The notes below the pieces were generated by a model. The model had not been told where the DNA came from and made no database searches. It saw only the letters and a program-made list of their open reading frames with translations. Below, piece after piece: positions 17,835 through 18,030 of a stretch of DNA of 64,000 nucleotides. Position 1 is the first letter of the stretch. Every line of letters starts with the position of its first letter. Position numbers and translations under genes: made by a program. Location of the stretch: the IMG/VR virus record IMGVR_UViG_3300032105_000042, positions 15,693-79,692 of that record. One strand, given 5' to 3'. Origin of the DNA: a virus.

Positions 17835-17902
17835 TGCCGCCTGACGAGCCCCCTCGCTGGGGCGAAACCCGCTGGTCCGCCCAGGGCTGGCGGGTTGCGG
17901 TA
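17835..17902 (+). ncRNA. Type I hammerhead ribozyme HH11 (cleavage after U17896, GUU triplet)
   Basis: TGCCGC-CTGACGA-GCCCC/GGGGC-GAAA-CCCGC/GCGGG-TT-GCGGTA; stem I pairs TGCCGC with GCGGTA. Confidence 0.88.
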
Positions 17903-17980
17903 GCACACCCGCTGTCCACAACAGATAGGGTGACGTAAAGACCAAAGGATCTACCGCCCAACTCCTCCTATGACCAACTA

Positions 17981-18030
17981 AAAAAGGAGGGACCCCGACC
18001 TGGGATCCCTCCTTTCTTTTTCTCTTTTTC
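17981..18030 (+). terminator. Rho-independent terminator ending the ribozyme-punctuated transcript
   Basis: AAAGGAGGGACCCC-gacct-GGGATCCCTCCTTT followed by CTTTTTCTCTTTTT; A-run upstream. Confidence 0.8.

Follow-up and report, generated by a model that had tools for sequence, protein, structure and literature searches.

A non-coding end piece of a phage hammerhead array, predicted to be freed by a type I hammerhead and complementary to the ribosome-binding site shared by the array's genes

Introduction

The purpose of hammerhead ribozymes in phage genomes is still open. Clusters of mixed hammerhead types flank short genes in prophage and phage transcripts, and processing into gene-length mRNAs was only suggested for them (Perreault et al. 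2011, PMC3088659). The same question is raised by the DNA studied here, a 64-kb window corresponding to bases 15693-79692 of the 79.8-kb IMG/VR virus record IMGVR_UViG_3300032105_000042 (positions below are those of the window). At ~11.9-18.0 kb of its + strand, 14 short genes form one operon with ten type II hammerheads between cassette genes. The array's last unit is a type I hammerhead followed by a trailer that carries the exact reverse complement of a ribosome-binding site (RBS) shared by 11 cassettes. What is such an end piece for? The locus adds conserved non-coding end pieces to what is known of hammerhead arrays, and their only obvious property is perfect complementarity to the shared RBS of the processed messages. 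In the reading that fits the sequence best, which we hold tentatively, the trailer would repress the cassettes in trans by pairing with their RBSs.

The terminal type I hammerhead

The end pieces of the array and their predicted targets are located as follows.

11958-11968, + strand: leader anti-RBS CUCCUCCUAUG, within GAUCUCCUCCUCCUAUG (11952-11968); exact reverse complement of the shared RBS, 2 nt before type II hammerhead 1
12050-16593, + strand: 11 cassette RBSs sharing (C/U/G)AUAGGAGGAG, the predicted targets; starts at 12050, 12357, 12617, 12985, 13336, 13659, 14170, 14986, 15693, 15933 and 16583
17835-17902, + strand: terminal type I hammerhead (core and helices read; descriptor; model R1, 42.7 bits); predicted cleavage U17896/G17897
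17897-17957, + strand: trailer 5' domain, GCGGUAG (the former stem I 3' strand) paired with CUACCGC and enclosing the hairpin 17906-17932
17962-17972, + strand: trailer anti-RBS seed CUCCUCCUAUG, exact reverse complement of the RBS 11-mer; kept in the relatives L205 (identical) and L167 (GCCUCCUAUG)
17983-18030, + strand: intrinsic terminator, hairpin 17983-18015 (GGAGGGA.CCC / GGGAUCCCUCC) followed by the U-rich tract UUUCUUUUUCUCUUUUU

The original prediction began with a type I hammerhead at the end of the array, and this part of it was borne out. The core was complete (CUGACGA 17841-17847, GAAA 17864-67, A15.1-U16.1 17867/17895, H17 = U17896), with an open stem I of 6 bp (17835-40/17897-902) and two loop-closed helices, stem II of 5 bp (17848-52/17859-63) and stem III of 11 bp (17868-78/17884-94). 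A strict base-pair descriptor found this one type I hammerhead in the window and gave 2 hits in 1.1 Mb of unrelated phage loci. The Rfam type I/III models had no match to 17835-17902 at E<=10. A covariance model (R1) was also trained on 30 further phage type I hammerheads, fetched by a search pattern that derives from 17835-17902 itself. It matched the element over the full length at 42.7 bits (E 1.6e-10), its sole hit in the window, in keeping with membership in a large natural ribozyme group.

The helices also covaried, in three sequences only: the window, its close relative L205 and the distant relative L167. Stem II changed by compensation from GCCCC/GGGGC in the window to GCCCU/AGGGC in L205 and GCCUUU/AAAGGC in L167, stem III had three unrelated sequences each forming 10-11 pairs, and a G-C pair of stem I became A-U in L167. 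The core was invariant in all three (CUGACGA in the window and L167, CUGAUGA in L205), and the cleavage triplets were GUU, GUU and GUC, respectively. Judged by these features, 17835-17902 is a genuine type I hammerhead, and its self-cleavage is predicted.

A core pattern search of IMG/VR returned 76 loci, among which 38 type I hammerheads (CCUGAYGAGCC...GGCGAAACC) were clean and differed from one another. They have the same core as the window's ribozyme, the same stem II and III openings and often the same stem I (CCGC/GCGG), and their 3' products refold, starting GCGG...CCGC. The downstream complement that had been said to compete with stem I (CTACCGC) is present in the window; however, such refolding of the stem I strand is a habit across these phage hammerheads and so is no evidence of a special function here. 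The difference lies in what comes next. An RBS and a gene followed within ~20-60 nt downstream in 38/38 cases, whereas the ribozymes of the window, L205 and L167 have an anti-RBS and a terminator downstream. A trailer with an anti-Shine-Dalgarno (anti-SD) element and terminator was found in 0/38 of these unrelated hammerheads, indicating that the trailer is not a by-product of the ribozyme.

In several other viral contigs (L231, L235, L243, L271, L301, L228, L254 and L293) the 3' strand of stem I is the SD itself, the cleavage site being followed directly by GGAGG...AUG. As read from these sequences, the ribozyme fold hides the RBS, and the predicted cleavage sets it at the extreme 5' end of the mRNA.

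The trailer RNA

Cleavage after U17896 is predicted to leave an RNA of ~125 nt. In the fold of 17897-18030 (z-score -3.1), GCGGUAG (17897-903) paired with CUACCGC (17951-57) around a CACCC/GGGUG hairpin and 17958-17982 stayed open, in agreement with the closure proposed earlier. The seed, expected to lie unpaired before the terminator, had a predicted mean probability of being unpaired of 0.97 in the released RNA. Downstream of it, the GC-rich hairpin 17983-18015 ran directly into the U-rich tract, and termination is predicted there; a simple terminator scan missed this hairpin because its stem is bulged. The RNA was also said to be without an open reading frame (ORF), and none of at least 30 aa starts inside the trailer; by eye only AUG ACC AAC UAA was seen, with no SD before it. 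The conserved AAGACCAAA of the trailer 5' domain had no complementary site in the window. As predicted, then, the trailer has a structured domain at its 5' end, a terminator at its 3' end and a single-stranded seed between them, which is the layout of a small RNA (sRNA) derived from a 3' untranslated region (3'UTR). No local SD partner for the seed was found within the window trailer, so the arrangement by which an anti-SD sequesters an SD in cis is absent there.

The terminator raises the alternative that the element is structural or linked to termination and does not regulate any RBS. The CU-rich stretch may shield the SD-like 5' arm of the terminator (AAGGAGGGA) from ribosomes or RNases, may modulate termination by competing with the 3' arm, or may be a remnant of array duplication. 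This arm is SD-like (GGAGGG) in all three trailers of the window's kind (class A: window, L205, L167), 5-7 bp could form between it and the anti-RBS, and the same motif at both array ends would be expected if it had been copied along with the unit. However, the seed was 97% unpaired at equilibrium, showing that the alternative seed-terminator helix is not populated. The second kind of trailer (class B, below) has terminators without an SD-like arm and keeps the anti-RBS anyway, and the motif persists in both the window and its 96-kb IMG/VR relative, whose flanking sequences have diverged throughout. We consider a purely structural role unlikely. An antiterminator made of the seed and the terminator 5' arm (5-7 bp) was rejected: it was unpopulated in the ensemble, and class B trailers have no such arm.

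The shared RBS and its two antisense copies

The RBS 11-mer CATAGGAGGAG occurred exactly seven times on the + strand (12050, 12357, 13336, 13659, 14170, 15693 and 15933) and four times with one mismatch (12617, 12985, 14986 and 16583), at 5-6 nt from the start codon. The complementarity of the seed, given originally as exact to 7 cassette RBSs and 10/11 to 4 more, was confirmed. On the opposite strand the exact 11-mer was found only at 11958-11968 and 17962-17972, that is at the two array ends, and the second copy that had been reported at the far end is therefore real. Matches to the 11-mer with at most one mismatch numbered 19, compared with 1.3 expected, and 0/100 shuffles reached 19.

The duplex energy of the trailer seed with the 11 shared RBSs was -18.6 to -20.7 kcal/mol, and that with three motif-less cassettes or with the first gene of the next operon was -11 to -14 kcal/mol. 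A generic 16S tail gave -13.6 to -16.3 kcal/mol on the same RBS sites. The seed matched the RBS of its own (last) cassette, AACGGAGGAG, over 7 bp, as against 11 nt for the 11 upstream cassettes; its last four bases, UAUG, complement the phage-specific CAUA flank of the upstream cassettes and not the RBS of its own. After ribozyme processing the better-matching targets are other molecules, which points to action in trans.

Alternatively, the end pieces might mimic the 3' tail of 16S rRNA, such that the released CU-rich RNAs would titrate host mRNAs led by an SD, or a host factor that recognizes the anti-SD, in host take-over or counter-defence. The common bacterial 16S end is GGAUCACCUCCU; the leader GGAUCUCCUCCU is one base off it, and the CU-rich core would pair with any GGAGG. 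However, the seed reaches into the phage-specific flank (UAUG : CAUA), outside SD:anti-SD pairing, and its strongest targets would be the phage's own RBSs, making a 16S mimic improbable. The original suggestion that host SD sequences might be sequestered, like that of a timer, is speculation.

Because the 11-mer reads CATAGGAGGAG on the minus strand, it might also be the genuine RBS of a minus-strand gene. The only candidate start was a TTG at zero spacing, whose ORF (17961..17584) runs antisense through the Lys-rich gene of the + strand. A start codon is absent after the 11958 copy and in L167, and all neighbouring genes are on the + strand, so this reading can scarcely be credited.

At the other end of the array, the leader anti-RBS was paired with RBS1 (12050-12063) in the minimum free energy fold, with hammerhead 1 enclosed; its predicted ground state is thus pairing with RBS1 across the first ribozyme. 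A second CUGACGA (11944-11951), just 5' of the leader anti-RBS, was tried as a hammerhead and rejected, no stem I or II being formed. It is CUGAUGA in the close relative L202 and absent in more distant relatives.

A further CU-rich region was seen at 53500-54110, a 600-bp divergent intergenic region with five copies of a 34-44-nt repeat. Read on the + strand, the repeat is rich in C and U (CACAACUCCUCCU..., CAAUCCCCUCCUAC); on the - strand it resembles an SD. In two of the copies there is CAACTCCTCC, the same sequence as in the 5' part of the trailer seed region. The repeats could be more anti-SD RNAs, or - strand SD-like sites in the leader of a long minus-strand operon.

Relatives and conservation of the layout

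The array DNA had no match among GenBank phages, and two neighbouring proteins had no relatives in IMG/VR. An RBS 17-mer alone hit 12 loci, 0 with a hammerhead, and these were set aside as chance matches. A scan of genome contigs gave two single chance-like hits (a metagenome-assembled genome of Halanaerobiaceae, and Porphyromonas), with no array and no host lead. Patterns in which the hammerhead 3' core is combined with the RBS did reveal relatives: a 96-kb IMG/VR contig (L056+L059+L072), a partial second copy (L084) and ~100 metagenome contigs (L126-L223), which come from the SDBT, SDBV, SDBU and LAZR records and from Hainich ERZ1292xxx records. Between the 96-kb contig and the window, blastn aligned only ribozyme and RBS motifs and tblastx only two remote protein matches. 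The design was nevertheless the same, with AUCUCCUCCUCCUAU directly before the first hammerhead and AUCUCCUCCUA nine bases before the operon terminator.

Across the metagenome contigs the antisense motif occupied two positions only, leader or trailer. The leader anti-RBS was kept in more than 10 contigs, and in each of them a self-cleaving ribozyme (type II hammerhead or hepatitis delta virus (HDV)-like) or a hairpin came next. It lay 2-6 nt before the first ribozyme in L127, L132, L141, L179 and L202. In L189 (811-883), L196 (700-771) and L212 it was followed by a conserved hairpin and then by an HDV-like ribozyme instead of a type II hammerhead. This element matched RF02682 at 35-36 bits, below the cut-off of 44, and three HDV-type families match the same spot; in these three contigs the predicted ribozyme classes are swapped at one slot. 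In L131, L155 and L171 the conserved leader module (5' domain + CUCCUCCUCCUA) was followed by a GC-rich hairpin and no array, and it looks like a stand-alone anti-RBS RNA gene.

Trailers fell into two classes. Those of class A (window, L205, L167) have the type I hammerhead, a closed domain, a free anti-RBS and a terminator, with seed probabilities of being unpaired of 0.97 in the window, 0.97 in L205 and 0.64 in L167. Their 5' closing helix is GCGGUAG/CUACCGC in the window and L205 and GGCAA/UUGCC in L167, and the inner hairpin of L205 differs in sequence and is still paired. Class B, the commoner form, comprises 8 contigs: the 96-kb IMG/VR relative (L056:3005-3210, - strand), L137, L158, L173, L184, L195, L203 and L219. 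Here the anti-RBS lies just before a terminator without a ribozyme, and the trailers are otherwise different. An orphan SD UAGGAGGAGAU is followed by a mini-ORF of 3-4 codons (NUG AGG AGA UAA), a long and highly conserved hairpin, the anti-RBS and the terminator. The mini-ORF is itself SD-like, forming a second SD GAGGAGAU, and the SDs lie ~100 nt upstream of the anti-RBS. Class B trailers had no match in Rfam. Their CUGAGGA was rejected as a hammerhead core, its C3 being unconserved (GUG, UUG and GGG in other contigs). In several class B contigs tRNA genes lie downstream, and L056 also has a weak Y RNA-like (YrlA) match at 1125-1241.

As to the conservation of the seed/RBS pair, the check suggested with the original prediction, layout and seed recurred in L205 and L167 despite diverged flanks; in class B, however, the anti-RBS tracks a decoy SD in cis and not the cassettes. 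As to co-change of seed and target in these short contigs, all relatives keep the GGAGGAG core and the match is shortened in L167. An independent array of six hammerheads was found in L048 (IMGVR_UViG_3300025646_000152, - strand, rc 430-2580). It has a different RBS, AGGAGGUUG (consensus ACAGGAGGUUGGACAUG), and an anti-SD, GACCUCC, abutting its first hammerhead. Because the layout recurs in relatives, the anti-RBS end pieces are clearly under selection in a family of uncultured phages.

Proposed mechanism

In the reading that we prefer, type II hammerheads would dice the transcript into cassette mRNAs, each led by the same strong RBS. The non-coding last unit would be cut by the type I hammerhead after U17896, freeing the trailer with a 5'-OH end. 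The freed GCGGUAG would re-pair with CUACCGC, so that the 5' end is closed and protected and re-ligation is disfavoured. The 11-nt anti-RBS would stay single-stranded immediately 5' of the intrinsic terminator; the ribozyme would set the 5' end of the trailer, and the terminator its 3' end. Pairing in trans with the shared RBS CAUAGGAGGAG would then lower translation of the processed cassette mRNAs. The leader fragment, with the second anti-RBS, would be cut off by hammerhead 1 and act likewise. Hammerhead products carry 5'-OH and 2',3'-cyclic phosphate ends, and mRNAs with a 5'-OH are expected to be long-lived, given 5'-end-dependent RNases, so a built-in translational off-switch would make sense. 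The ribozyme, the fold, the complementarity and the conserved layout are shown above; that the trailer is freed in vivo, accumulates, pairs in trans and represses the cassettes, and that it has any role in timing, we infer.

Several findings weigh against repression in trans. Stoichiometry is poor: each transcript gives a single trailer and a single leader for 11 target RBSs, an adverse balance if the end pieces do not last longer than the mRNAs. Ribosomes will also compete for the targets, which are very strong SDs. L205 is a close relative of the window, leaving two independent lineages only in class A, and the R1 score is partly circular because the training pattern came from the query ribozyme. 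In each of the three class A contigs the uncleaved last cassette folds with the seed on the RBS of that cassette, and modelling thus makes a cis role of the seed before cleavage possible. The class B anti-RBS is predicted to be paired in cis with the decoy SD (probability of being unpaired 0.01-0.18); masked and unreleased, it indicates that an exposed, trans-acting seed is not the universal state. In contig SDBT01002441.1 (L160+L173) the anti-RBS matches the decoy over 12 nt and the cassette RBSs over 10 nt, and the L203 anti-RBS shows covariation with the second decoy (GAGGAGAAUGG / CCAUUCUCCUC). Finally, L048 has no anti-RBS before its terminator.

Much of this evidence bears on a mask acting in cis. 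The trailer anti-RBS would pair with an RBS on the same molecule, be it that of the last cassette or the class B decoy SD, until a ribozyme or host RNase separates them; translation would be held back or the 3' end shaped, and the leader anti-RBS would only mask RBS1 and lengthen stem II of hammerhead 1. The uncleaved last cassette with trailer indeed folds with the seed on 17452-17458 at p ~1.0, and likewise in L205 and L167. Class B trailers are masked in cis, with the covariation in L203 and the better fit to the decoy in SDBT01002441.1, and modelled alternative pairings of the anti-RBS with SD1 or SD2 look like a switch. Pairing of the leader with RBS1 is likewise predicted, spanning hammerhead 1 in the window and the HDV-like unit in relatives. 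However, the partner in the window offers only 7 bp, and the four extra seed bases (UAUG) match only other cassettes. Pairing predictions over 500 nt are unreliable. A ribozyme lies between mask and RBS, which makes the interaction bimolecular after cleavage, and an intermolecular helix of 7 bp would soon fall apart. Moreover, with its closed 5' domain and its terminator the trailer looks designed as a free-standing RNA. Both for the trailer and for the leader, a role confined to masking in cis is rather unlikely.

If repression by the released end pieces is taken to the whole phage family, which comes from groundwater-type metagenomes, it may run a self-contained RNA circuit. Ribozymes of three kinds (hammerhead I, hammerhead II and HDV-like) would make stable 5'-OH mRNAs and free both end pieces as trans-acting anti-RBS riboregulators of every cassette. 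This wider proposal is possible but doubtful; if true, it would give the first natural example of a trans-acting sRNA matured by a ribozyme and of operon-wide autoregulation via a shared RBS. If trailer and leader act as proposed, hammerhead arrays would have a regulatory logic, namely to process, stabilize and then silence mRNAs, and a ribozyme would do the work of RNase E in maturing an sRNA. Ribozyme insulator, standard RBS and matched anti-RBS would also make a compact natural design for synthetic biology.

The gene array and its type II hammerheads

The array sits in a + strand block flanked by two minus-strand blocks with large genes, which are presumably structural. When 10 cassette proteins were compared with Pfam and PHROGs, one was DUF2786/DUF7168 (phrog_421), one had a weak winged-helix match, and the rest were mostly orphans. 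The ten type II hammerheads are predicted to cut the transcript into single-gene or few-gene mRNAs. Five scored above the RF02276 gathering cut-off, all of them at more than 37 bits, and two just below it; the remaining three (12911, 15619, 16509) came from sequence reading or a base-pair-checking descriptor. That descriptor was used instead of a loose regular expression, which was too noisy. A MAFFT alignment of the ten copies was out of register near CUGAYGA and was left out of model building.

11971-12048, + strand: type II hammerhead 1 (RF02276, 37.5 bits)
12290-12356, + strand: type II hammerhead 2 (RF02276, 58.2 bits)
12547-12616, + strand: type II hammerhead 3 (RF02276, 40.4 bits)
12911-12984, + strand: type II hammerhead 4 (sequence reading: AGUCGAAAC, stem III, GUC, stem I, CUGACGA, tail complementary to loop I; no Rfam match)
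13269-13335, + strand: type II hammerhead 5 (RF02276, 32.3 bits, below cut-off; also a descriptor match)
13575-13650, + strand: type II hammerhead 6 (RF02276, 30.7 bits, below cut-off; also a descriptor match)
14918-14987, + strand: type II hammerhead 7 (RF02276, 40.4 bits)
15619-15692, + strand: type II hammerhead 8 (descriptor and sequence reading)
16509-16582, + strand: type II hammerhead 9, a near-copy of hammerhead 4 (sequence reading)
17369-17443, + strand: type II hammerhead 10 (RF02276, 43.7 bits)

Every type II hammerhead begins at the end of the preceding gene, whose stop codon overlaps the ribozyme's first bases or lies directly against them (UAGUCGAAAC, UAAGUCGAAAC, UAAAGCCGAAAC), so that a terminating ribosome would cover the 5' strand of stem II. 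All ten copies have the same short stem II (GUC/GAC), which would make the 5' and 3' halves of neighbouring ribozymes interchangeable. Type II hammerheads form a pseudoknot between loop I and the 3' tail (PMC3088659), and 3' of each copy in the array there is a short tail able to pair with loop I, followed by the RBS (C/U/G)AUAGGAGGAGAU(C/U)AUG.

Two junctions (14107-14169 and 15884-15932) are without a hammerhead. In both, its place is taken by a long imperfect hairpin with CUGACG/CGUCAG or GACG/CGUC as outer strands, followed by a conserved CAGAURCGUCAGYAUC..AAA and the standard RBS; the element is also found in L205. The hairpin had no match in Rfam and may be a host RNase site or another processing signal. 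The gene at 13350-13574 has an in-frame amber codon (TAG, 13383-13385) after 11 codons, with the frame open on to 13574. Its homologue in L128 (full-length alignment, 44% identity) has Asn at this position; a nonsense mutation, a sequencing error and read-through or suppression are all possible.

Comparison with known systems

A hammerhead gene array is of a known kind, since prophage clusters were described in 2011 (PMC3088659); like them, the present array has several hammerheads between short genes of one transcript. It is unusually dense and regular, with 10 type II and 1 type I hammerheads in 6 kb and one RBS common to the cassettes. A terminal ribozyme with a non-coding RNA and anti-RBS elements at the array ends were not described for the earlier clusters, and the terms 'Shine-Dalgarno' and 'ribosome binding' are absent from the text of PMC3088659. 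A literature search brought up no earlier description of a hammerhead that releases an anti-RBS RNA.

The trailer resembles DicF (dicBF operon, Qin prophage), CpxQ and SroC, sRNAs derived from 3'UTRs. These share the terminator of an operon, are released from the mRNA 3' end by endonucleolytic cleavage and direct a single-stranded seed against an RBS. There, however, RNase E or RNase III cuts and the end is a 5'-monophosphate, whereas here a self-cleaving ribozyme would leave a 5'-OH and the targets would be the RNA's own operon mates. The leader anti-RBS is closer than the trailer to the c4 antisense RNA of phages P1 and P7 (immI operon), which is co-transcribed with its targets, excised from a precursor and blocks an RBS of the same operon. 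By contrast, c4, which precedes its targets, is matured by RNase P and has two target sites for one gene pair, while the RBS here is common to 11 cassettes. RsaE/RoxS and RNAIII, the C-rich or UCCC-seed sRNAs of Firmicutes, likewise direct a CU-rich single-stranded seed against GGAGG-type RBSs of many mRNAs, but they are stand-alone host genes with their own promoters and not pieces of a phage operon freed by ribozymes. By analogy, the locus is best described as a putative combination of hammerhead gene arrays, 3'UTR-derived sRNAs and operon-internal antisense RNAs like P1 c4.

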